A stretch of 11,380 bases of DNA from a virus. The stretch spans positions 174,249 to 185,628 of IMG/VR virus record IMGVR_UViG_3300032163_000001. The stretch is one strand, 5' to 3'. The notes under the pieces were generated by a model that was not told the origin of the DNA, did not search any database, and saw only the letters and a list, made by a program, of their open reading frames with translations. The position numbers were made by a program, and so were the translations under genes. This document shows positions 2-11,247 of this stretch, piece by piece. Within the stretch, counting starts at the first letter, position 1, and every line of letters starts with the position of its first letter.

Positions 2-409
2 CTATTCACAAATTTTGAATTTGTTCGTTACAAAGTGCTTACCATCAAACTCTTTCAATGTGGTAAAACAAGACTCTATAGAATCAAAGAATCTATGTGT
101 ATGAAATGAAACCCAAATATCTTTTCTTATCTGTTCAGTTGGATCAATAACAAAAACAAGTTTATTGTTATCATATGCAAAACAAATTTCCATTGATGTA
201 CCCCAACTTGGTCTTACAGTATAAGCTACAACAACATCTGATTTCATAATTAAATATTTATCAAGCGAAGGAATTTTTGGAAGGGGTCTACAACCATCTG
301 ACATAGGATCGATTATATCAAAAACTTGTTCATAATCATAGTGTACTGTTTCTCTGTAGTCGGTTTCACCAGTATACCCTGCGAGGTAAATTTTCAGTTT
401 TTCAGTCAT
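2..409 (-). CDS. Nucleoside 2-deoxyribosyltransferase-like / DNPH1 (Rcl)-like protein, 135 aa, complete (ATG 409, TAG at 2-4)
   Basis: N-terminal KIYLAG motif and C-terminal GTSMEICFA...KLVFVI block resemble PF05014 family motifs, including the Glu nucleophile context DxGTxxExGxA. Weak SD (AAGGGA, long spacer). Sits in a minus-strand operon with QueC. Confidence 0.5.
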   Translation of the reverse strand: MTEKLKIYLAGYTGETDYRETVHYDYEQVFDIIDPMSDGCRPLPKIPSLDKYLIMKSDVVVAYTVRPSWGTSMEICFAYDNNKLVFVIDPTEQIRKDIWVSFHTHRFFDSIESCFTTLKEFDGKHFVTNKFKICE

Positions 410-1576: not shown

Positions 1577-2302
1577 TTATTCTACTAATCCTCTTTTAAA
1601 TTCTTCTCTTACTTTTTGCATATACTCAACAGCAATTTTCCATTCTTTTTTGGTAAGCAACGGGTCTTTTATTTTGTTTTCATAAAACGCTTCAGTTCTC
1701 TCAACATCCGTACCACATTTTGAACACGGTCTTGTCTCTCCTCTGTAACATGACCAAGTATTTTTGAATGGAACTTTGTCTACTATTCCTATAGAAACAA
1801 TCTCAGCTTTTGTAAGATTATTAAAAGGACTAATTATTTCTACATGGTTATAAGTTGCCAGTTTTGATGCCTCACTTAGTGCTTGGATAAATTCTATCCT
1901 ACAATCAGGGTATTGGGCTCTATCCCCGGTGTGATTTCCAATAAATACTTTGTTTAGATTAAGTGATTCACTATATCCAATTGCCAAACTCAGCATTATC
2001 ATATTCCTATTTGGAACCACAGTTGCCTTCATACTATCATCTGAAAAATGACCTTCTGGAACTTTTACTTGTTCAGACGTTAAACAACTTCCTTGTAACA
2101 AGGGATTAATATTATGAAGGTTTATAACTTTGTGATTTAATCCTAGAATCTTACAAGTTTTTATTGCGCACTTTATTTCTCGCTTGTGTTTCTGACCATA
2201 ATCAAATGTTAATACTTGAAGATCCCAATCTGGTAACAAGTCATACAGAAGAACAGAACTATCCATCCCACCACTTAGTATTAAAACAGCCTTCTCTTTC
2301 AT
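1577..2302 (-). CDS. queC: 7-cyano-7-deazaguanine (preQ0) synthase QueC, 241 aa
   Basis: PP-loop ATPase motif LSGGMDSS. FDYGQKH matches the QueC FDYGQRH block. VPNRN and YPDC R match VPGRN and YPDCR. C-terminal Zn site CYRGETRPCSKCGTDVER (C..C..C..C). ATG at 2302 with GAGAGGAA upstream. Confidence 0.85.
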   Translation of the reverse strand: MKEKAVLILSGGMDSSVLLYDLLPDWDLQVLTFDYGQKHKREIKCAIKTCKILGLNHKVINLHNINPLLQGSCLTSEQVKVPEGHFSDDSMKATVVPNRNMIMLSLAIGYSESLNLNKVFIGNHTGDRAQYPDCRIEFIQALSEASKLATYNHVEIISPFNNLTKAEIVSIGIVDKVPFKNTWSCYRGETRPCSKCGTDVERTEAFYENKIKDPLLTKKEWKIAVEYMQKVREEFKRGLVE

Positions 2303-2399: not shown

Positions 2400-2482
2400 C
2401 AAAGAAAAGGATTATTATTTTATCATCAGAAAGGAGGTATGTGGAAGTTGAGTAAAGAAAACGGAGGAAGGAGGTGAAAATC

Positions 2483-2695
2483 ATGGGAGATGAAAATATC
2501 AAAACATCACAGTTTTCGGTCCTTAAAGCTTCTGCTGGAGAAAAGCTGGAGCCAGATGCGAGAAAACAAAGGAGAGTGGAGCTCTTAAAGAACGTTGGAG
2601 CAATCACGGTAGTAGCAATTTTAAGCGCGGCTTCCTTATTCGGTATAGGCCTCGCGGTTGGAGTTTTTGGAGGGGAACCCACCAAGACATCATAA
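2483..2695 (+). CDS. Small tail-anchored membrane protein, 70 aa (true start ATG 2483; the ORF-track GTG at 2474 lies inside the SD)
   Basis: GGAAGGAGGTGA SD with a 7-nt spacer. Polar N-terminal region, then the C-terminal TM AITVVAILSAASLFGIGLAVGVFGG and the tail EPTKTS. Confidence 0.5.
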   Translation: MGDENIKTSQFSVLKASAGEKLEPDARKQRRVELLKNVGAITVVAILSAASLFGIGLAVGVFGGEPTKTS

Positions 2696-2743
2696 GTTTA
2701 GTTTAATCTCTAATATTCTAATTAGGAGGGAGGTGAAAAAATA

Positions 2744-3103
2744 ATGATAATTAAGACTGGTGATGAACTATTAAAAACAATTAGAAGCTCTGGTGCTTCT
2801 GAAAACGTTGTAAATAAATTCAAAGAAGCCATTAACGAAAACGGTTCCTTGGAAATCAATGAGGTTCCAGAAGATCTTGAAAAACAAGTTGAAGCTTTCT
2901 GCCAGTGTTCAGATCCCACAACTATTCGTTCCAAAGGGAAGAAGTTCAGGAAAGCGGCTGTGATGTATGCTGGAAGTGTAGTTGGAGTAACTGCTATGGT
3001 TACAGGAGTCAGTCTTCTAATAGCGTATGGAGTTCGTTATGGAGACGCAATAAAAACTTCTCAGCAAATGAGCACCGGGATCACAGCAGGCCTGACCTTG
3101 TAA
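2744..3103 (+). CDS. Tail-anchored small membrane protein, 119 aa; paralog-like to the 2483 and 3349 genes
   Basis: AGGAGGGAGGTGA SD. C-terminal TM AAVMYAGSVVGVTAMVTGVSLLIAYGV. Ends ...GLTL, as the 3349 gene does. Confidence 0.55.
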   Translation: MIIKTGDELLKTIRSSGASENVVNKFKEAINENGSLEINEVPEDLEKQVEAFCQCSDPTTIRSKGKKFRKAAVMYAGSVVGVTAMVTGVSLLIAYGVRYGDAIKTSQQMSTGITAGLTL

Positions 3104-3112
3104 GTAAAAAAA

Positions 3113-3147
3113 TAGTATCTCAGTTTTCTTGAGGTACTATTTTTTTA
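3113..3147 (+). terminator. Rho-independent terminator
   Basis: Stem AGTATCTCAG / TTGAGGTACT (10 bp, two G-U wobbles), loop TTTTC, then a T7 run. Immediately after the stop at 3103. Confidence 0.6.
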
Positions 3148-3180
3148 ACAAGTAGATGATTTAATTAAAAAAAAAGAAGA

Positions 3181-3197
3181 CTATATATATTAATTAA
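3181..3197 (+). promoter_or_regulatory. Promoter-like motif CTATATATATTAATTAA (copy 2)
   Basis: Exact copy of the 17-mer, placed right after a terminator and upstream of the 3349 gene. Confidence 0.5.
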
Positions 3198-3348
3198 CAG
3201 AAGGTATAAGAAGAGTTATATTTTAAAATTCTTAAGAAAAAAGGAGGTGATGATTAAATAGTATTTGGATCAGTGAAAAGGTAGTTCTCTTCAACAATTT
3301 TCGATGTCAAGAGAATAATTATTTTCTTTTGACAGGAGGAGCATCTTC

Positions 3349-3615
3349 ATGAATGGGGGCATTGAAGGAGAATTAACAGAAACAAGATCCAAGATTGGAG
3401 AAGTATCTGCAGCTGAACCTGTTACAAAATCCCAAGAAGAAATTATAGTCAAACCCAACAAAAACGGGACTGGGATAAAATACCTTATTTCTGCTGCAGC
3501 AGGGTTTGTTGGTGGTATTGTACTCACAGCTGGACTAATTTACATTAGCAGACGATCTAATAGTGAAGTTGTTGAAATCATTACTAGCCTACCCCTATCA
3601 GGTCTAACTTTATAG
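3349..3615 (+). CDS. Tail-anchored small membrane protein, 88 aa
   Basis: ATG with GGAGGAG 7 nt upstream. TM YLISAAAGFVGGIVLTAGLIYIS. C-terminal ...SGLTL shared with the 2744 gene. Confidence 0.55.
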   Translation: MNGGIEGELTETRSKIGEVSAAEPVTKSQEEIIVKPNKNGTGIKYLISAAAGFVGGIVLTAGLIYISRRSNSEVVEIITSLPLSGLTL

Positions 3616-3636
3616 CTTCGGATAGGGGAGCTATTA

Positions 3637-3664
3637 AAGGGGGAATAGCCCCCCTTATTTTTTC
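3637..3664 (+). terminator. Rho-independent terminator
   Basis: AAGGGGG-aatag-CCCCCCTT stem-loop followed by TATTTTTT. A weaker hairpin (ATAGCT...AGCTAT) precedes it. Confidence 0.7.
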
Positions 3665-3681
3665 TCTCTTTGATAGTCGTT

Positions 3682-3698
3682 CTATATATATTAATTAA
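3682..3698 (+). promoter_or_regulatory. Promoter-like motif CTATATATATTAATTAA (copy 3)
   Basis: Exact 17-mer. TTGATA lies 7 nt upstream. Directly followed by GAAGAAAGGAGG and the 3722 ATG. Confidence 0.5.
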
Positions 3699-3721
3699 TG
3701 AAGAAAGGAGGTATATTTTAG

Positions 3722-3883
3722 ATGAAATTTACTGATGAACAAATTGAATTTATGAGAGCAGATATTGAATCGAGCTTTGCTTATTCTAAGTTAATTCATA
3801 TAGCAAAGAAGATTGTAGAAAGTGAAGGACTAAATTTCGAAGAGGAGTTCGAGAAGTGGAAAATAAATCAAAGGAGGAAATAA
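3722..3883 (+). CDS. Hypothetical small acidic protein, 53 aa (MKFTDEQIEFMRADIESSFAYSKLIHIAKKIVESEGLNFEEEFEKWKINQRRK)
   Basis: ATG after AAAGGAGG (10-nt spacer). No TM segment. Below the ORF-track size cutoff, so translated by hand. Confidence 0.35.
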   Translation: MKFTDEQIEFMRADIESSFAYSKLIHIAKKIVESEGLNFEEEFEKWKINQRRK

Positions 3884-3885
3884 AC

Positions 3886-4026
3886 ATGTCAAAGTTCTTT
3901 ATATTAGTCGCTGGTATTGGGATAGTGTTACAAATTGTATTCGTCAGTTGGACTTTAATTGACATTCGAGACGAACTTCGTATGATTCGAAAACATTTAA
4001 GAGGTGAAAAAATCGAAGAAAATTAA
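3886..4026 (+). CDS. Small membrane peptide, 46 aa (MSKFFILVAGIGIVLQIVFVSWTLIDIRDELRMIRKHLRGEKIEEN)
   Basis: AAAGGAGGAA SD with an 8-nt spacer. N-terminal TM helix. Starts 3 nt after the previous stop. Confidence 0.4.
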   Translation: MSKFFILVAGIGIVLQIVFVSWTLIDIRDELRMIRKHLRGEKIEEN

Positions 4027-4056
4027 CTTACAAAAAGAAAGGAGCAGATAGGAGAA

Positions 4057-4185
4057 ATGGAAGACAGAAAACCAAGTAGATCAAGATTCGTTATCGACTG
4101 GGGCACATTGCAATTCATTGTCCTGAATATATTCGCATTGGGTTTTGCATTGTTGGTAAACGCTTTGTTGAAAAAGTGGGGTTGA
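4057..4185 (+). CDS. Small membrane peptide, 42 aa (MEDRKPSRSRFVIDWGTLQFIVLNIFALGFALLVNALLKKWG)
   Basis: AGGAG-containing leader. Central TM helix. Confidence 0.35.
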   Translation: MEDRKPSRSRFVIDWGTLQFIVLNIFALGFALLVNALLKKWG

Positions 4186-4202
4186 GAGGGGAGGAGATAA
4201 AC

Positions 4203-4457
4203 GTGAAAAACAAAAGTATACCAGGTATTAATCTTTGTGTTGGTTGTGGATACTGTTGTTGGGAATCTACCTGTTCACTCGGTTTCAAACTCTATGGATC
4301 CACTCACCCTTGTTCAGCTTTGTATTGGAATAGACAGCAATATCGTTGTAAATTAGCAGACGATTTCGCAAATCATCTTTACATAGGTACAGGTTGCTGT
4401 TCTCCTTTAAATACATGGAGAAGAAACGTTCAACAAAGAACCGAAATATCACAATAA
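4203..4457 (+). CDS. Cys-rich CxxCxxCC (YkgJ/UPF0153-like) putative metal-binding protein, 84 aa, GTG start
   Basis: GGGGAGGAG SD then GTG at 4203. N-terminal CVGCGYCC fits the CxxCxxCC signature of PF03692. Further cysteines follow (C..C....GCC). Confidence 0.4.
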   Translation: MKNKSIPGINLCVGCGYCCWESTCSLGFKLYGSTHPCSALYWNRQQYRCKLADDFANHLYIGTGCCSPLNTWRRNVQQRTEISQ

Positions 4458-4488
4458 CTAAAAAAAAAGGAGGTGAAACCAAAAAAAT

Positions 4489-4623
4489 ATGAAAGAGGAA
4501 ATCCAAGCGTGGTTTATCAACAAAAACTTAAGTCTATTCTTTAGACTTAAGCACATACTAAACAGAGAAGTAGCTTGTTTGGTATGTTTCAAAATCGACG
4601 CTCTAATCAGAAAAATATTGTAA
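4489..4623 (+). CDS. Hypothetical 44-aa protein (MKEEIQAWFINKNLSLFFRLKHILNREVACLVCFKIDALIRKIL)
   Basis: Perfect extended SD AAAGGAGGTGAAACC before the ATG. Contains a 10-bp perfect inverted repeat (4527-4551). Confidence 0.4.
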   Translation: MKEEIQAWFINKNLSLFFRLKHILNREVACLVCFKIDALIRKIL

Positions 4624-4641
4624 ATAGGAAGGGAAAAAAGA

Positions 4642-4809
4642 ATGTATAAAGTAGCATGTAGAATCCAACAAGCATCAATTAGAAGAGCAGCAGTTTCAGG
4701 TAAAAATCTTAAACAATACATCGCTCCAAGAAAACCAGAACCACTGCCGGAATGGAGTAAGATTCTTAACAAAGTAGTTGTTCTAAAAAGAAACCATTAT
4801 TCTACATAA
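4642..4809 (+). CDS. Hypothetical basic 55-aa protein (MYKVACRIQQASIRRAAVSGKNLKQYIAPRKPEPLPEWSKILNKVVVLKRNHYST)
   Basis: ATG after GGAAGGGA. Lys/Arg-rich. The antisense ORF 4458-4772 in the track is judged spurious. Confidence 0.35.
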   Translation: MYKVACRIQQASIRRAAVSGKNLKQYIAPRKPEPLPEWSKILNKVVVLKRNHYST

Positions 4810-4824
4810 GGAGGTGAACAAGAA

Positions 4825-4971
4825 ATGAGAAAAATAAAAATATGGAGGATTCTAAAAGTATTATTAAGAGTTGAAAAATCGGAAAGACAGATCGTGAGAG
4901 AAAGACTAGCTGATCTGGCTAAGAGGTGGCTAAGAGGTGGTAAAGGAAAAGGAGGTGAAACCAATGGATAA
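4825..4971 (+). CDS. Hypothetical basic 48-aa protein (MRKIKIWRILKVLLRVEKSERQIVRERLADLAKRWLRGGKGKGGETNG)
   Basis: TAAGGAGGTGAACAAGAA then ATG. Its 3' end overlaps the next start at 4964. Contains an 11-nt tandem duplication, gctaagaggtg x2. Confidence 0.35.
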   Translation: MRKIKIWRILKVLLRVEKSERQIVRERLADLAKRWLRGGKGKGGETNG

Positions 4972-5386
4972 AGTTCCAGAGACTCCTATAGAGAAGTGTC
5001 AACACCGTTTATTAAGTCAAGCTTCTTCTATAGCTAATGACTTAAGGTGTCATGTATTTTGCGAAGGCAACAGGTTTATATATGATTTAGAAACTCTTCC
5101 AAATGTCATCAGCAGATGGATTATATATAAACCTGCAAAAGTTCCACGAAATATCCAAGAGATTCTTGAGAATCTTGATGAACTAAGCACTGAAGATGAG
5201 TTTTCTTACATTTCGTCTAGAGAAGAAGCTTTAGACGTGAGTGAAAAAACTCTAGCCTGGTTGCAGAAACTAGATGCTCCAATAATGTATTTCCAACAGA
5301 TTAGGAGCGAGATATCTGAAATTAAATCTCTCTTCAAAGAATGCCTTTTGAATACTCTTGTAGAATGTCTTACAAGAAAGAAATAG
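4964..5386 (+). CDS. Hypothetical protein, 140 aa (true start ATG 4964; the ORF-track GTG at 4937 is rejected)
   Basis: AAAGGAGGTGAAACC then ATG. Long ORF with coding-like composition. No recognisable motif. Confidence 0.55.
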   Translation: MDKVPETPIEKCQHRLLSQASSIANDLRCHVFCEGNRFIYDLETLPNVISRWIIYKPAKVPRNIQEILENLDELSTEDEFSYISSREEALDVSEKTLAWLQKLDAPIMYFQQIRSEISEIKSLFKECLLNTLVECLTRKK

Positions 5387-5425
5387 TCTCCATGGTGAGC
5401 AGTCAAAAAAAGGAGGAGAAATCAA

Positions 5426-5557
5426 ATGGAAGACGAAACAAAACTGCAGTTGAAGCAGGATACTCGAGATGTTGTAAAAGGTGTTGTGATTGAACTCATA
5501 GTCGTAGCTATAGTAGCGGGACTAGGAGTGTTAATTGCAGCTATGTCTAAAAAGTAA
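5426..5557 (+). CDS. Small membrane peptide, 43 aa (MEDETKLQLKQDTRDVVKGVVIELIVVAIVAGLGVLIAAMSKK)
   Basis: AAAAAGGAGGAGAA SD. C-terminal TM helix. Followed by a terminator. Confidence 0.4.
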   Translation: MEDETKLQLKQDTRDVVKGVVIELIVVAIVAGLGVLIAAMSKK

Positions 5558-5590
5558 AACCACATTCAAAATAGTCTCTATACTGAGACA

Positions 5591-5617
5591 AGTGGAAGAA
5601 GTCTTCCACTTTTTTTA
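5591..5617 (+). terminator. Rho-independent terminator ending the plus-strand block
   Basis: Stem AGTGGAAGA / TCTTCCACT (9 bp), 2-nt loop, T7 run. Confidence 0.7.
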
Positions 5618-6643
5618 CTATGACATCCACAACTTAAAGTTTAAGTTACTTATTTGTCCAAGAGAAATATTACTCATATTATTTACTAACTCTTTTCTTA
5701 ACTCTTCATTTCTATTTAGTCCTTCTATTACTTTGCTTTCGACTTCATTGTCGTTAAAATTCACTACACCTTTTTCTTTATAGAAACTCAATAATCTAGT
5801 TTTATTTCTAATCAACAAAGGTGTTCCAGACATTAAAACTTCTGTAACTACTCTTGGAGACCCATCGTATTCATTACTTGTCACAATTGCTAATCTACTC
5901 TTATTTAGAAAAGTATTAATTTCAGGTCTGTTCAAATGTCCTAAAAATTTGATATTAGAAACTCCAAATTTTTTACAAAGATCAATACCTTTTTCTGGTT
6001 CATTTCCCATATGTATGATACTTATTTTTTGTAGTTCTTTGGACTTAGAAACTTCACTTATAAAGTATTCTTGTCCTTTAAAGTTAATTTCACTAAAATT
6101 ACATATCCAACATAAATCATAGTTTTTAACTTGTTTCTTAAATGGATAAAAAATTTTGTCATTCGCTGTCTTAAAGAATGGATATGTTAAAGAATGTTTT
6201 AAATCTTCATCTGACTCAACAAGTATTTTTCTATATCTTCCTCCGTATTGTGGAAATACTCTTCTACCAGCACCTAAGTACAAACTATTACCAAAGAATG
6301 CATGTTGTCGTTTCGTGATCATACAATATTCTTGAAAACCACCTCTAAAGAAAGATATTGTTGGTTTAGGAAACTTATAGATATCATAAAAACTATTAAC
6401 AAACTTTTGAGTAAATGTTTTTCCTCTAATAGTAAAAACAATATCTTTAATATCTACTTTAGGTTTTAGCCTTAAAACAACTACTTCATCTACATAGTTA
6501 TTTTCTAAGTAACACAAACACATCAGAAGATAGAAATCATGACAATTAGTTTTGAATTGTTCTAAGTTTGTAAAACTATGATAGTATTCCAGAATTCTCA
6601 AATTAGTCCTAAATAACCACAGAATCTTTTTTTCCATATTCAA
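5618..6643 (-). CDS. GT-B fold glycosyltransferase (GT4/GT1-like), ~340 aa; start either TTG at 6643 or ATG at 6637
   Basis: C-terminal domain KFLGHLNRPEINTFLNKSRLAIVTSNEYDGSPRVVTEVLMSGTPLLI matches the GT4 nucleotide-sugar binding region (f.G....l..ly..a...v.pS..EgfG...lEAma.G.Pvi). Very AT-rich. Sits on the strand opposite to both flanking blocks. Confidence 0.55.
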   Translation of the reverse strand: MNMEKKILWLFRTNLRILEYYHSFTNLEQFKTNCHDFYLLMCLCYLENNYVDEVVVLRLKPKVDIKDIVFTIRGKTFTQKFVNSFYDIYKFPKPTISFFRGGFQEYCMITKRQHAFFGNSLYLGAGRRVFPQYGGRYRKILVESDEDLKHSLTYPFFKTANDKIFYPFKKQVKNYDLCWICNFSEINFKGQEYFISEVSKSKELQKISIIHMGNEPEKGIDLCKKFGVSNIKFLGHLNRPEINTFLNKSRLAIVTSNEYDGSPRVVTEVLMSGTPLLIRNKTRLLSFYKEKGVVNFNDNEVESKVIEGLNRNEELRKELVNNMSNISLGQISNLNFKLWMS

Positions 6644-6657
6644 TAATACTCCTATTC

Positions 6658-6678
6658 TGTATATATATTAATTCTTAA
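6658..6678 (+). promoter_or_regulatory. Degenerate copy of the promoter-like motif (TGTATATATATTAATTCTTAA)
   Basis: TATATATATTAATT core with a CT insertion. TTCAAT lies 17 nt upstream of the TATATA. Followed by AGAGGAGG and the 6695 ATG. Confidence 0.4.
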
Positions 6679-6694: not shown

Positions 6695-6979
6695 ATGGGA
6701 GATCGATATTTCTTAACAGTTGTTTGTCCTGATTGTGGTGAAGTTGAAGAGGAGGTCTATTACGCTCCAACATGTGGCTTCAAAACACACAAATGTCACG
6801 TATGTCACGAAATAATTGACCTTGAAAAGTATTCTGGAATCTCTGAAGAAGATGCTTCAAATAGAGCTCTATTTGAAGAAGTAGCCAAAAATCCAGACTT
6901 GGCTAAACAGATGGACGAAAGTCCAGAATTGATGATGCAAATGATTGACCAATTCAAAAACAAGGAGGTGAACCAATGA
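6695..6979 (+). CDS. Zinc-ribbon protein, 94 aa (CPDCG ... CGFKTHKCHVCH), acidic C-terminus
   Basis: AAGAGGAGG SD. Two CxxC/CxxC(H) pairs about 20 aa apart. Followed by a terminator. Confidence 0.5.
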   Translation: MGDRYFLTVVCPDCGEVEEEVYYAPTCGFKTHKCHVCHEIIDLEKYSGISEEDASNRALFEEVAKNPDLAKQMDESPELMMQMIDQFKNKEVNQ

Positions 6980-6982
6980 TAT

Positions 6983-7009
6983 ATTCCCTCTTCGGAGGGA
7001 ATTTTTTTG
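6983..7009 (+). terminator. Rho-independent terminator with UUCG tetraloop
   Basis: ATTCCCTC-ttcg-GAGGGAAT, an 8-bp perfect stem, then a T7 run. Confidence 0.75.
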
Positions 7010-7010
7010 C

Positions 7011-7709
7011 CTAAGTAGTTGTTATTATTGCGTCTTCTCTTTGAAAAGAACGAAGTTTATGAGGAGCGATTTTCATACACCGAAGACCAATTGTTGATAG
7101 ACTATGTAGAGCTATATATCCACCCCTCCATTTCATAGGAGATAAATCTAAATTTGGCCTAGTTCTTTCTCCTCTAGTAACAAGATCAATATCATAGTCT
7201 TTTGCTAAAGGACTTTTCTGCAGATAATTTCGTAATAATATTTTGGTCCGATCTATATACATATCATTTTTAAAGTTACACATAATATGAAAAGAACTTT
7301 TTCCTGTAAATTTTATCCAAGCATTATCTATAAAGGGAATTCTAGAGTTTGCAAATTCATATGTATCGATAGCAGCTTGCTTAGCTTCTTTAAAGTTATC
7401 TGTATCAATATCTATAATTCCAAATCTCTCTATACTTTTCATAGTACAATGAATTGAAAGCATACGAGCATGAAAAACATCATCAAAATTTCCACGATTC
7501 AATCTTACAAAATGAGTTGTTTTTCCTCTTCTTAAAACTGTAATTCTATCACCAATAGCTAAAAAGATTATAAGGTCTCTATTAAAAATTTCAAATAGAA
7601 GCTTGTCTTTAACAGACTGATAGTAATCATAATTATTTTTCTCAGTAAGACCTTTTGGATAGAATTCATTGGTTATAAGAATACTATCTGGATGTTTGGG
7701 GTATGGCAT
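7011..7709 (-). CDS. LigD-type primase-polymerase domain protein (PolDom, archaeo-eukaryotic primase superfamily), 232 aa
   Basis: N-terminal [24 protein letters not shown] parallels the LigD Pol N-terminal consensus [35 protein letters not shown] matches motif I (FDLDP). [14 protein letters not shown] matches motif II (TSGSKGLHVY). [25 protein letters not shown] is motif III-like. Confidence 0.65.
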   Translation of the reverse strand: [232 protein letters not shown]

Positions 7710-7718
7710 ATTTTATCC

Positions 7719-8444
7719 TTATATATTTATAACGTCTCCTTCTTTTAGTATGCGTATTTCTTTGAAATGATATTCACTTTCATTTACATGGAATAAGTAA
7801 TCATTTATTTGTTTGTGACTCATGCGAATATGTCCAATGTGTGTAAAATACACACGGTTGACTTTACCTTTAACCCATTCTAGTTGGTGCAACATAGAAG
7901 CGTGTCCAATTCCAACTCTGTAAGAAATATCTTTTTTTAGGGCAGAGCCGTCACCCACATAAACTTCGACTCCTTCAAGAACTTTATTCTTACTTAACAG
8001 TTCTTTTGTATCCGGAGAATATAAAAGTTTTCCGATCCTAATAGCAGATGCAGGTGCAATACTGCTATGAAGAACAGGAAATAAAGTTACAGGGTATCCT
8101 GAAACATCTACGGTGTCTCCATAGTCTAAAACATTAACTTTTTTATCTTCAGGAATTATATGGTGTCTCACTAAAAAGTTATATGTAATATGAGACATAT
8201 AAAGTTCTTTATCAAGATGATATTTTACAGACCATGAGTGGTCAGGGTGAGAATGTGTAATTATAATCTTATTTACTTCACCAGGAATAACTTTAAAATC
8301 CTCTCCACAATCCAACATTATATCTTTTATAAGAAGAGATGCATTTCTTCTCTTTGTAAATATTGGATCTTTACAAGAGGCACAACCACACCCTTCTCTT
8401 GGAAAGTGAATTGAACAGCATGACCCCACTACAATTGCTTTCAT
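7719..8444 (-). CDS. PhnP-like metallo-beta-lactamase fold phosphodiesterase (cyclic phosphodiesterase-like), 241 aa
   Basis: IITHSHPDHSWS is the MBL HxHxDH motif. N-terminal GSCCSIHFPREGCGCASC mirrors the PhnP GTGGAQGVPAWGCECAAC region, including the CxCxxC structural Zn site. C-terminal YFTHIGH matches ILTHISH. Start overlaps the ligase stop (ATGA). Confidence 0.65.
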   Translation of the reverse strand: MKAIVVGSCCSIHFPREGCGCASCKDPIFTKRRNASLLIKDIMLDCGEDFKVIPGEVNKIIITHSHPDHSWSVKYHLDKELYMSHITYNFLVRHHIIPEDKKVNVLDYGDTVDVSGYPVTLFPVLHSSIAPASAIRIGKLLYSPDTKELLSKNKVLEGVEVYVGDGSALKKDISYRVGIGHASMLHQLEWVKGKVNRVYFTHIGHIRMSHKQINDYLFHVNESEYHFKEIRILKEGDVINI

Positions 8445-9481
8445 CTTATCTCCGCTCCCGTACCCAGTTGATCTAATCTTATATCTACGTCATTTACCGA
8501 CTTATCTGGACGTTCTCGAACGAAACTAGGCATGTCCAATGAAATTGTAAGTTTACTTCCCAGTGATACATATTTACTCCTAGTAAATTTATAAGCAGGT
8601 GCTTGTTTTATTCTCCATCTAAATGCTTTGATTTCTACTACCATTTCAGGTTTTACGAAGAACTCTCCATTAATTTCATCACTAATTATTTTTTTTCCTC
8701 CAACAAAATAATCATATAACTCAGACCTTTTAGCATGAGTAAATCCTGTACCGACATCCGAAGAAGATCTAAAAGTTCCATCAGGCCCAATGAAAGCTAG
8801 TTTAAGATAGCTTATTTGTTTTCTTGGCCAACTTTTCATCTTCGTACTTCCAATACCATATACAATCATATCCCAACTGGTGGTAGTTTTAATCTTATAA
8901 TTATCTCTACCATCGTCTAGTCTAGCTACTACTCCTTCAATACCCTTCTTTCTTATAGCTTTAGCATAAAGATCTTTAAAGTCATCAACTCCTCCATACA
9001 CATACTTTGGAATATGAATTCTCTTCGTATTTCTAAAATGACTTGTTATTTCTTCTATAGACTCTTTATAAGAAGTAAATCTTTTTGAATTGATAGAAAA
9101 GATGTCATAAATATAGTGTTGTACTAAAGGTTTATTTTCCACTAAACGAGACATCTTTACAACACTCATTAAATCTGGAAATGGAAGAATCAGGTTATTT
9201 CTAACCGCTACTAATTCTCCTATTAACACTATTTCTTTAATAGTTCTATTTCTACTAAGAATATCAGAGTACTCTTCAAGAACAGGAAGATCAATTATTT
9301 TGATATTATTTATTGTTACAAAGTATGTGTACCCTTTAACAAAAATAAGAGCGCCTAACATACCATCAATTTTTTCAATAAAATAAGAATCAGGAACTTT
9401 CTGAAATTTAGAGATAAATTCATTGTATTCTAGTTGCTTAAAGTTTACGTATTTTTTCCACTCTGCTGCAAAATTCATCAT
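8441..9481 (-). CDS. ATP-dependent DNA ligase (LigD ligase-domain-like), 346 aa
   Basis: Nucleotidyltransferase motifs: I EKIDGM (KxDG), III LIGELV, IIIa YIYDIF, IV EGVVAR, V YKIKTTTSWD, VI FVRERPDK. Confidence 0.7.
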   Translation of the reverse strand: MMNFAAEWKKYVNFKQLEYNEFISKFQKVPDSYFIEKIDGMLGALIFVKGYTYFVTINNIKIIDLPVLEEYSDILSRNRTIKEIVLIGELVAVRNNLILPFPDLMSVVKMSRLVENKPLVQHYIYDIFSINSKRFTSYKESIEEITSHFRNTKRIHIPKYVYGGVDDFKDLYAKAIRKKGIEGVVARLDDGRDNYKIKTTTSWDMIVYGIGSTKMKSWPRKQISYLKLAFIGPDGTFRSSSDVGTGFTHAKRSELYDYFVGGKKIISDEINGEFFVKPEMVVEIKAFRWRIKQAPAYKFTRSKYVSLGSKLTISLDMPSFVRERPDKSVNDVDIRLDQLGTGAEIR

Positions 9482-9499
9482 TAACTGTCTCCAAATAAT

Positions 9500-9817
9500 T
9501 TATTGTACATTATCTTGGAATAAATCTAACGTTCTAGCAGTAATAGCTTTACACCTATCTCCTTCTTTTCCATCCTTGTCTACACTTGAAATAGAATAAG
9601 AATATACAGAACCAGGTTTAACATTAGTATCTGTAGTTATAATATGAGGAGTAGATTGTAAAAACTTACCATCTTTATATATTTTATATTCTTTTGCTCC
9701 ATCTACAAAATCCCACCTAAGGTCAACTTGATTAGGAGTTACTGCAACAACTATTAATCCAGAAGGTGAAAGAATAACGTTTTGTGATCCCTTATCAAAA
9801 TAGTTTTTTGTCTTCAC
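9500..9817 (-). CDS. Fibronectin type III (FN3) domain protein, 105 aa, GTG start
   Basis: PSGLIVVAVTPNQVDLRWDFVDGAKEYKIYKDG...PGSVYSYSISSVD fits the FN3 beta-sandwich pattern (P..L.v...t..sv.L.W......Y.vy.....PGt.Y.y.v.a.d). AAAGGAG 6 nt before the GTG. First gene of the ligase operon. Confidence 0.5.
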   Translation of the reverse strand: MKTKNYFDKGSQNVILSPSGLIVVAVTPNQVDLRWDFVDGAKEYKIYKDGKFLQSTPHIITTDTNVKPGSVYSYSISSVDKDGKEGDRCKAITARTLDLFQDNVQ

Positions 9818-9881
9818 TATTTGCTCCTTTTTAACTGTATAAGTTACTTTATATTTTGTTCTAACTAAACCAAGTAAACTA

Positions 9882-9896
9882 CATATATTAATACAT
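9882..9896 (+). promoter_or_regulatory. Degenerate promoter-like motif (CATATATTAATACAT) upstream of the 9916 gene
   Basis: TATATTAAT core shared with the 17-mer family. Followed directly by GAGGAGGAGGTGA and an ATG. Sits in the region divergent from the ligase operon. Confidence 0.35.
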
Positions 9897-9915: not shown

Positions 9916-10203
9916 ATGATACTTTTAAAAGTGTTACTAGGAATATTGTTAGGAATATGTGGCCTTATATGCTTAGCTATATTTTTCGTATTCACATTCG
10001 CAACTCTACCATCACTTTGGGTGAATACAATCATATATGGGGCACTTACTCTCTGTGGCATGCTCATCTATTTCCTACCATCAGTAGTAGCTATCGCTAG
10101 ATACAAAAAGAACACTCTAGCTATTTTCGCAGCGAACCTTTTAGTCGGATGGACATTCATAGGTTGGGTCATTTGCTTCATATGGGCACTTACAAAGGAC
10201 TGA
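9916..10203 (+). CDS. Superinfection immunity (Imm, PF14373-like) membrane protein, 95 aa
   Basis: YFLPSVVAIARYKKNTLAIFAANLLVGWTFIGWVICFIWAL matches the Imm-family signature YFLPsiiA.(R).(H/K)(K)N...IF.lNLLlGWT.IGW..AliWA. Two or three TM helices. Strong SD. Confidence 0.6.
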   Translation: MILLKVLLGILLGICGLICLAIFFVFTFATLPSLWVNTIIYGALTLCGMLIYFLPSVVAIARYKKNTLAIFAANLLVGWTFIGWVICFIWALTKD

Positions 10204-10213
10204 GGGAGGTATT

Positions 10214-10423
10214 ATGCTAAAACGCGTTTGGAACTATTTAAAGTGGATCTGGAACGGGAAACCTACTATAAGATATTCTGGATACCATTGCGGGTGTTGT
10301 GGAGAATACTGGGACATCACCTTTCAAATTCCCACTTACAAAAGTGCAGGCGAATGGTGGGATACTTGGGATTTATGTCCAGAAGGAAAAGGATGCAATA
10401 AACAACAAAAAAAAGGAGAGTAA
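10214..10423 (+). CDS. Hypothetical Cys/Trp-rich small protein, 69 aa (HCGCCGEYWD...CPEGKGC)
   Basis: GGGAGG SD. Its 3' end contains one copy of the ~45-bp direct repeat. Confidence 0.45.
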   Translation: MLKRVWNYLKWIWNGKPTIRYSGYHCGCCGEYWDITFQIPTYKSAGEWWDTWDLCPEGKGCNKQQKKGE

Positions 10424-10425
10424 AT

Positions 10426-10614
10426 ATGAAAAAACTAATTTTGATAGCTATGTTGTTAGGATTAGGGTTGTTGTCTTGTACACATTCACCCAGTCGTCGT
10501 CCTGTCTTTACTGGCTTCACTGCAGATGTAAATGAGCAGGAGATTAGGGAAGAGTGTAAGAAGTCTGATAATTATGAACAATGCATGAAATCCAAAGGAA
10601 TACCGACTCGATAG
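10426..10614 (+). CDS. Small lipoprotein, 62 aa (signal peptide with lipobox LLSC)
   Basis: MKKLILIAMLLGLGLLSC has a basic N-terminus, a hydrophobic core and L-L-S-C before the Cys. AAAAAGGAGAG SD. Confidence 0.55.
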   Translation: MKKLILIAMLLGLGLLSCTHSPSRRPVFTGFTADVNEQEIREECKKSDNYEQCMKSKGIPTR

Positions 10615-10624
10615 ATAAGCTTAG

Positions 10625-10671
10625 AGGGTTTATGTCCAGAAGGAAAAAGGATGCAATAAACAACAAAAAGA
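10625..10671. repeat. Second copy of the ~45-bp direct repeat (first copy 10368-10413)
   Basis: GGG(A)TTTATGTCCAGAAGGAAAA(A)GGATGCAATAAACAACAAAAA is present twice with a single A indel. The two copies flank the lipoprotein gene. Confidence 0.7.
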
Positions 10672-10683
10672 AAGGGAGGGTAT

Positions 10684-11247
10684 ATGAAAAGAGGTACTTT
10701 AACCATAATTCTTATTCTGATAGTATTAGCAGTATCCTACACTATAACAAGGTGTAGTGAAGCACAAACTCAACTAATTCTCCAATACGGGAGAAGCAAA
10801 GTAGAAGTTCAAATTCCAACCGAATTGTTTGAATCTACAATTAATCAAATGCGAGTTGGAGATATTGGATACTGCGGAGCAAGTTCAATGATTGTTGACG
10901 TTGAGGGTAGAGCTTATCTTTGGGGATTTACAGACCTAGAAAAGGGTATGAGCCTAAACGATGGTTGGTTAAGAATAGAGAGAAAAACTGATGGTTATTA
11001 TGTCTCTCTTAAACTAGGTAAACAAAAATGGGCCAATGGTAAAACTTACTATTGGAAACCCTATACAGTCAAAGTAAATTCTCAACCAGAAGAAATAGTC
11101 GATTTAAAAAAGATGGTTAAATCAGGGTCTATATTCCCAATCAAAAAGGTTTTACTGTATCGAGATAGATTGTTTTATGGATGGTTTAGGAAAGATCAAG
11201 TTGATGAATATGAAGAAAAACTTCCAAAGGAGGTACTACAAAAATGA
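10684..11247 (+). CDS. Secreted or membrane-anchored hypothetical protein, 187 aa (N-terminal signal/anchor LTIILILIVLAVSYTI)
   Basis: AAAGGGAGGG SD. Hydrophobic N-terminus, then a soluble Trp/Tyr-rich domain. No recognised motif. Confidence 0.55.
   Translation: MKRGTLTIILILIVLAVSYTITRCSEAQTQLILQYGRSKVEVQIPTELFESTINQMRVGDIGYCGASSMIVDVEGRAYLWGFTDLEKGMSLNDGWLRIERKTDGYYVSLKLGKQKWANGKTYYWKPYTVKVNSQPEEIVDLKKMVKSGSIFPIKKVLLYRDRLFYGWFRKDQVDEYEEKLPKEVLQK

Follow-up and report, generated by a model that had tools for sequence, protein, structure and literature searches.

The 11,380-bp stretch of viral DNA analysed here, positions 174,249 to 185,628 of the IMG/VR record IMGVR_UViG_3300032163_000001 (the window; GC 0.339), carries on its minus strand a gene for a glycosyltransferase (GT) with a GT-B, GT4-like fold. 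In an uncultivated lineage of large and jumbo phages, the GT has long been resident as one of the core ("backbone") genes and is not a recent cargo. With respect to its function, we see roughly an even chance that it acts in making a phage glycoconjugate, with a protein favoured as the acceptor.

Composition, distribution and gene order

An earlier note on this DNA, made from the letters alone, described the GT as more AT-rich than its neighbours and took this as a sign of a moron-like insert. The first part was borne out, as the GC content of the gene (0.275) is the lowest among the 21 genes of the window, the other genes having a mean of 0.36. However, the composition does not mark the gene as foreign. 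The deficit sits in codon positions 1 and 2 (GC1 0.339, GC2 0.281) and reflects the many K, N, F and I residues of the protein, while neither GC3 (0.205) nor the choice among synonymous codons departs from what is typical of the window. The co-oriented enzyme genes have GC3 values of 0.132–0.236, and when synonymous codons were scored against the usage pooled from all other genes, the GT had a log-likelihood of -0.854 per codon, the second best of the 21. Moreover, the GC of the GT tracks the genome GC across 26 relatives whose local GC ranges from 0.24 to 0.44, and in 25 of them it is below the value for the remainder of the locus, by 0.037 on average. The low GC thus belongs to the whole family, and the gene has co-evolved with each genome. 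Since the codon usage matches that of the neighbouring genes, the GC is low throughout the relatives and synteny is conserved across about 30 distinct viral contigs, the moron reading was rejected, on grounds that the note itself had named as refuting it.

More than 350 full-length homologs of the GT, with 46–96% identity and on contigs of up to 280 kb, were found in a metagenomic protein collection, and IMG/VR holds 27 viral contigs with the gene, the largest of 312 kb. An exhaustive hidden Markov model search of 1.84 billion cluster representatives gave just 22 at E<=1e-30, followed by a sharp drop. By these matches, the family is narrow and confined to one viral lineage. The whole window had no megablast match among 50,697 GenBank phages, and neither the GT nor the ligase and the 232-aa polymerase-domain protein encoded near it had a tblastn match in the same set. 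Whether the lineage corresponds to the "moraphages", for which four core glycosyltransferase orthogroups are given (PMC12619734), could not be established from the text of that paper.

Among 185,579 species genomes, the GT was found on only two contigs, both from metagenome-assembled genomes (MAGs), labelled Thermoplasmatales and Hyphomicrobiales; no isolate genome among these species representatives carries it, and no signs of a prophage were seen for the family. Other members come from MAGs labelled Thorarchaeota or Pacearchaeota; the MAG-labelled members are L039 (DAOVGR010000028.1), L040, P0053 and P0113. The inconsistent taxonomy of these MAGs, together with a phage-like context, suggests that viral contigs were mis-binned into them.

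In the closest relatives (68–71% identity), the ligase, a 230-aa protein, a 163-aa protein and the GT follow each other in the same order as in the window. The 232-aa polymerase-domain protein lies upstream of the GT, on the same strand, in most of the approximately 30 distinct loci, which were collected by searching for the GT itself. In 19 of 21 IMG/VR loci, QueC follows the GT at a distance of no more than 6.5 kb, and the same downstream stretch harbors dCMP deaminase in 13 of the 21 and dATP/dGTP diphosphohydrolase in 5, as well as NDT-like and ThyX genes. On contigs as long as 312 kb, the lineage keeps an order in which a LigD-type polymerase precedes the GT, and QueC, a dCMP deaminase and a gene like those of deoxyribosyltransferases come after it. 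A small partner protein conserved beside the GT was also sought, and the 85–87-aa neighbours in different relatives proved to be unrelated.

Fold and conserved residues

The GT-B, GT4-like fold proposed for the protein in the earlier note is backed by profile, model and structure comparisons. Pfam Glycos_transf_1 (PF00534) matched the GT with an E value of 7.3e-10 and 39.1 bits against a cut-off of 26.4 bits, and Glyco_trans_1_2 (PF13524) with 27.9 bits against a cut-off of 25; PF00534, PF13692 or PF13524 is present in most of the homologs. The AlphaFold2 (AF2) model, obtained with a 60-sequence alignment, shows two Rossmann-like domains with a cleft between them (predicted local distance difference test, pLDDT, 94.9; predicted TM-score, pTM, 0.92). 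A Foldseek search of the Protein Data Bank (PDB) with this model gave 309 matches at E<=1e-3. The top ones were all GT4 enzymes and include SdgB, a C. jejuni glycosyltransferase, glycogen synthase, WaaG, MshA, BshA, PimB', SenB, TarM and the tetrahydrobiopterin glucosyltransferase (9v0w/5ze7), with E values of 1e-11 to 1e-9, TM-scores (TM) of 0.5–0.69 and 10–15% identity. In BFVD, the best match (TM 0.69–0.74, 16% identity) was followed by GT1 proteins of giant viruses and uncultured phages, including those of Tupanvirus, Catovirus and Klosneuvirus. SenB also appeared among weak NCBIfam matches. The GT had no match in PHROGs, the GT and seven neighbours had none in PADLOC, and single-sequence and family-profile searches of the PDB sequences gave chance matches only.

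The canonical donor motifs of GT4 enzymes are "R..KG" and "E-x7-E", and these enzymes have a Gly-rich loop after strand 1. In the GT family N182, K189-G190, D260-G261, P263-R264 and E268 are invariant and P275 nearly so. From the sequence, N182...K189-G190 and D260-G261...E268...G-T-P may correspond, in a variant form, to the donor signature "R..KG" and "E-x7-E...G-x-P". Compared with CAZy GT4 / Glycos_transf_1 members (SdgB, WaaG, MshA, BshA, PimB', TarM and glycogen synthase), the GT shares the two-Rossmann GT-B fold, a PF00534 match above the gathering score and a similar size class, and its C-terminal K-G and acidic-x7-E residues may be a form of their donor signature. It differs in its low similarity to any solved structure, in the invariant F-R that replaces the Gly-rich loop, and in the Asn and Asp that stand in place of the Arg of "R..KG" and the first Glu of "E-x7-E". 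A nucleoside diphosphate sugar (NDP-sugar) is the expected donor from which a sugar would be transferred and, by analogy with the fold neighbours, the transfer probably retains configuration.

The N-terminal domain, which would bind the acceptor, has many invariant aromatic or charged residues (F11, R12, E19, Y21, H22, D36, Y38, R58 and R100-G-G-F103). Its mean conservation is 0.65, compared with 0.63 for the C-terminal domain. That the acceptor domain is conserved as much as the donor domain argues for a single acceptor kept throughout the lineage. The protein is soluble, with no membrane segment, and basic, with a pI of 9.3 (family median 9.16).

Glycan islands and candidate acceptors

In 21 loci of relatives, the 6.5 kb upstream of the GT are dominated by glycan-type genes. 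Methyltransferases, NAD-dependent epimerases/dehydratases, GT1, UDP-GlcNAc 2-epimerase, hexapeptide transferases, sulfotransferases, GFO_IDH_MocA and GT-D recur there, and the islands also hold NAD-dependent 4,6-dehydratases, a DegT aminotransferase, SGNH hydrolases, GT2 and radical-SAM enzymes. The GT typically seems to close these variable islands as their last gene. Two GT1-like genes of one relative (L008) were considered as paralogs of the GT and rejected, as hhalign gave one of them a probability of 0.2% and the other 60%, the latter confined to the donor motif.

We propose that the GT would take a sugar from an NDP-sugar and hand it to an acceptor common to the whole lineage, and that it would thus serve as the constant transferase in a glycosylation pathway encoded by the phage. 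The acceptor would most likely be a phage-made protein or virion component, with phage DNA as the second candidate. In the present phage, the donor would come from the NDP-sugars of the host or from genes elsewhere, because the window has no sugar-synthesis genes. The decorated multi-sugar pathways of the relatives resemble the protein and surface-glycan routes of giant viruses and bacteria, which favours a phage-made glycoconjugate. The 4,6-dehydratase, aminotransferase, acetyltransferase and 2-epimerase genes beside the GT in relatives are like the sugar-nucleotide genes of giant viruses, and virus-encoded GT1-type enzymes are likewise found in mycobacteriophage virion glycosylation and giant-virus glycan clusters. 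Unlike these virion-glycosylating systems, the present lineage is not known to have a glycosylated virion protein, the window has no structural gene beside the GT, and the best BFVD match is as distant as given above.

Several points weigh against a glycoconjugate product. Apart from the GT, the window has no glycan gene, and structural genes are also absent from it. The most constant neighbours of the GT are not glycan genes but enzymes of DNA and nucleotides (LigD-type polymerase, QueC, dCMP deaminase, NDT-like), so that an insertion hot spot, and not a shared function, could explain why glycan islands lie next to it. Moreover, synteny within one lineage is expected by common descent and is therefore weak evidence that functions are coupled. 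A DNA acceptor would suit the basic pI and the place among DNA-metabolism genes equally, and the presumed retaining mechanism is deduced from the fold neighbours only.

The strongest alternative, which we nevertheless hold to be rather unlikely, is that the GT glycosylates the phage DNA at a base that is hydroxylated or modified in another way, or glycosylates a nucleotide precursor, and so shields the DNA from host nucleases. The gene is conserved between DNA-repair genes (LigD-type polymerase and ligase) and the nucleotide module of QueC, dCMP deaminase, NDT-like and dATP/dGTP diphosphohydrolase genes, and it lies on the same strand as both; the basic pI and the highly conserved acceptor domain also fit. 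Pyle et al. (bioRxiv 10.1101/2023.12.21.572611) reported metagenomic phage GT-B DNA glycosyltransferases that glycosylate 5-hydroxymethylcytosine (5hmC) and are structurally like BshA, MshA and PglH, and also described epimerases and secondary glycosyltransferases in such DNA-glycosylation clusters. The present GT also resembles BshA and MshA, and it shares with these enzymes and with the T4 alpha- and beta-glucosyltransferases (GT72 and GT63) that it is phage-encoded, basic and located among DNA-metabolism genes.

The earlier note had compared the GT with the T-even glucosyltransferases in proposing that it could glycosylate DNA. Membership of the T4 families was not supported; a DNA acceptor keeps its place as the second reading. 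Unlike the T4 enzymes, with which hhalign found no sequence relationship (the GT family profile had a probability of 0.09% against the T4 beta-glucosyltransferase and 0.24% against the alpha-glucosyltransferase), the GT has no hydroxymethylase or 5mYOX partner near it. No T4 family was matched in Pfam at E<=1, and neither T4 enzyme was in the top 50 structural matches in the PDB. A ThyA/gp42-type hydroxymethylase is absent from the window, and tblastn with T4 gp42 gave one hit (L024) in the loci of 29 relatives; these partner tests span 10 kb on either side of the GT in genomes of 100–300 kb. Thymidylat_synt, Tet_JBP, DNA methylase and TGT/DpdA were not among the recurrent neighbouring families, and the presence of ThyX and dCMP deaminase points to ordinary thymine. 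To our knowledge, the known products of QueC chemistry (preQ0 and ADG) offer no hydroxyl, which we counted against this reading, and multi-sugar islands with sulfo and methyl decoration would be unprecedented on DNA.

A more special form of DNA glycosylation would be a new glycosylated, 7-deazaguanine-derived purine hypermodification, made by the GT together with the QueC, dATP/dGTP diphosphohydrolase and NDT-like genes, a block conserved in the lineage, with the adjacent variable sugar islands diversifying the glycan. We give this little probability. DpdA, QueD and QueE are absent from the window. In the relatives, QueC-like genes were observed to co-occur with dCMP deaminase, NDT-like and dATP/dGTP diphosphohydrolase (PF18909) genes downstream of the GT (L009–L039). 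Taken together with QueC and the NDT-like gene of the window, these nucleotide genes hint at an undescribed route of purine-nucleotide modification. A role like that of GTDC1/QTMAN, a GT4 enzyme that adds a sugar to the queuosine of tRNA, would be a speculative further idea.

It is also improbable that the acceptor is a metabolite, such as a pterin or 7-deazapurine intermediate, a thiol or an inositol- or malate-like compound, as for BGluT, SenB, MshA and BshA. The QueC pathway begins from a pterin, and QueC is constantly near the GT. The compact size of the enzyme (339 aa), the small-molecule GT4 enzymes among its top structural matches (9v0w/5ze7, SenB, MshA and BshA) and the weak NCBIfam match to SenB would suit such a role. 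However, the Foldseek ranks cannot tell acceptors apart, since all lie in the same range of E values and TM, and QueD, QueE and FolE are absent from the recurrent neighbouring families. A small-molecule reading is also without precedent in phages.

The least likely reading, to which we attach a low probability, is that the GT modifies the surface of the infected cell (lipopolysaccharide, teichoic acid, capsule or pilin) and so keeps out superinfecting phages. In its favour, WaaG, TarM and PimB' are among the GT4 fold neighbours, type IV pilus-like genes (PilY1, PilX_N and N_methyl pilins) adjoin the GT in the closest relatives with an Imm-type superinfection gene close by, and a terminator stands on one side of the gene. 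Against it, the gene has a codon usage like that of the window at large and a low GC that is a family trait, the window has no integrase and no Gtr-type partner such as a flippase or GT-C, the GT has no membrane segment, and synteny across about 30 contigs with GC of 0.20 to 0.44 points to a variety of hosts even though the acceptor domain is conserved. The seroconversion by a lysogen that was proposed earlier is likewise unlikely, as the family is absent from isolate genomes, with two MAG contigs as its only matches among the species genomes, and as its acceptor domain is conserved in phages that differ widely in GC; unlike for the seroconverting prophage GTs of the Gtr and TarP types, no temperate carriage was seen.

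A phage GT with a putative acceptor would by itself be an ordinary finding, and the value of the present one lies in its context: one invariant GT4-like enzyme anchors highly variable glycan islands beside a conserved, QueC-centred nucleotide module in an uncultivated large-phage lineage. The identity of the acceptor would tell virion glycosylation, as in giant viruses and mycobacteriophages, from DNA glycosylation, and either outcome bears on the evasion of host defence by uncultivated jumbo phages.

Gene layout, neighbouring modules and minor observations

Table 1. Features of the window, with positions counted from its first letter
Feature	Position	Strand	Basis or remark
Glycosyltransferase (GT) coding sequence	5618..6637	-	339 aa from ATG at 6637; stop codon TAG 5620..5618
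Shine-Dalgarno sequence AGGAG of the GT	6649..6653	-	Read from the sequence; 5 nt to TTG, 11 nt to ATG
Weak hairpin with U-rich tail, possible terminator of the GT transcript	5574..5589	-	Terminator scan; 29 nt past the GT stop; putative function
Intrinsic terminator closing the plus-strand small-gene block	5590..5616	+	Terminator scan; 9-bp stem 5590-5611, then T7
Promoter-like motif CTATATATATTAATT, copy next to the GT	6659..6673	+	Directed away from the GT, toward the zinc-ribbon gene
Promoter-like motif CTATATATATTAATT, all copies	2383-2397, 3181-3195, 3682-3696, 6659-6673, 9879-9893	+	Each upstream of a small plus-strand gene
94-aa zinc-ribbon gene	6695..6979	+	Own ribosome-binding site (RBS) and terminator 6983-7002
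NDT/SLOG-like (NDT-like) protein	2-409	-	Same strand as the GT
QueC	1577..2302	-	Pfam QueC E 1.8e-58; co-oriented downstream neighbour, 3.3 kb past the GT stop
LigD-type (non-homologous end joining, NHEJ) AEP polymerase-domain protein, 232 aa	7011..7709	-	AF2 pLDDT 93.3; conserved upstream neighbour of the GT
Metallo-beta-lactamase (MBL)-fold hydrolase	7719..8444	-	Pfam Lactamase_B_2 E 1.2e-9; phrog_392; lineage-specific, between ligase and polymerase
ATP-dependent DNA ligase, NHEJ-ligase type	8441..9481	-	Pfam DNA_ligase_A_C; phrog_114; TIGR02779 E 5.9e-11
FN3-like protein	9500-9817	-	Same strand as the GT

The enzyme genes of the window share the strand of the GT, with QueC, a small membrane protein, an SLT transglycosylase and the NDT-like protein on one side (2-2302) and the LigD-type polymerase, MBL hydrolase, ligase and FN3-like protein on the other (7011-9817). 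The GT thus lies on an enzyme "backbone" strand, in which the small plus-strand genes are interspersed islands. The earlier note had placed the GT between two plus-strand blocks, with a terminator to its left and a promoter-motif copy to its right. Both signals are real (Table 1), and so is the block on the left, whose last gene before the terminator encodes a 43-aa tail-anchored membrane peptide (5426-5557). On the right, however, the supposed block is a single gene, and the enzyme genes beyond it are on the strand of the GT; it is this zinc-ribbon gene that is the actual single-gene island within the minus-strand enzyme block. Relatives have a different small divergent gene in its slot.

The motif CTATATATATTAATT occurs in five copies in the window (no more than 2 mismatches), all on the plus strand, while 0.17 are expected by chance. 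In 29 non-duplicate loci of relatives, the motif was found 112 times on the strand opposite to the GT and 15 times on the same strand as the GT. As in the window, a copy directed away from the GT lies upstream of its start, at 23–46 nt, in several relatives (L001, L005, L006, L009, L012 and L027), and that of L001 faces an open reading frame (ORF) for a small membrane protein and not a zinc-ribbon gene. Thus CTATATATATTAATT is probably a lineage-wide promoter of small opposite-strand genes; these genes would form a separate temporal class, possibly an early one. The GT would accordingly be expressed together with the co-oriented enzyme genes and not with these small genes.

The opposite-strand ORF of about 340 aa seen in the earlier note is real, running from 5618 to 6643 on the minus strand with 341 aa if it begins at the in-frame TTG at 6643, two residues longer than from ATG. 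From the sequence, the ATG at 6637 is the likelier start, because a metagenomic homolog with 96% identity (P0001) begins MEKKILWLF and because of the position of the AGGAG element. A scan for sigma-70 promoters gave 40 sites compared with 44 expected from shuffles, and we do not claim a promoter for the GT since there was no enrichment. Convergent terminators, the one on the GT strand putative, lie beyond its stop codon at 5574-5616, and the sole motif copy upstream of it is directed away. Read-through into the GT from the polymerase gene is possible, because the hairpin at 6983-7002 carries a T-run on the plus strand only.

The 232-aa protein had no match in Pfam, NCBIfam or PHROGs, and its LigD-type polymerase domain is recognisable by structure only. 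In Foldseek, its AF2 model matched LigD/NHEJ polymerase domains and Prim-PolC (5dmu, 3pky and 6sa0) with TM of 0.73–0.80 and a root-mean-square deviation of 3.2–3.8, and D100-x-D102 and G136-K-x-S-F-H141 are invariant. Based on this model, the protein is predicted to form a split LigD-like end-repair module with the NHEJ-type ligase and the MBL hydrolase.

The plus-strand run at 2474-5557 consists of small genes, none of which is annotated in databases. Tail-anchored single-pass membrane proteins are encoded there at 2474-2695, 2744-3103 and 3349-3615, in addition to the 43-aa ORF at its end, and only the products of the genes at 4176 and 4937 have homologs in relatives. The closest relatives carry, on the strand opposite to the GT, type IV pilus-like or Tad-like genes (PilY1, PilX_N, N_methyl pilins, Flp_Fap and RcpC/SAF), an unusual cargo for phages, at 11420-15775 in L001, 8569-12893 in L006, and 3847-5025 and 11198-12314 in L005; the plus-strand block of the window is in the same position.

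A 95-aa membrane protein is encoded at 9916-10203 on the plus strand, and its C-terminal half is 56% identical to a 60-aa gene product of L006 with Pfam Imm_superinfect (T4 Imm-like). Within the SLT gene, a tandem 39-nt repeat at 1106-1183 on the minus strand, with copies 87% identical, encodes a duplicated SEFEVK(K/R)D..I(S/P)A near the N-terminus of the protein. Finally, a 46-nt direct repeat with 87% identity (10387-10432 and 10645-10690, plus strand) takes in the last part of a small ORF together with the RBS and the beginning of the gene that follows, and the two genes downstream of the repeat copies encode lipoprotein-like or signal-like N-termini.

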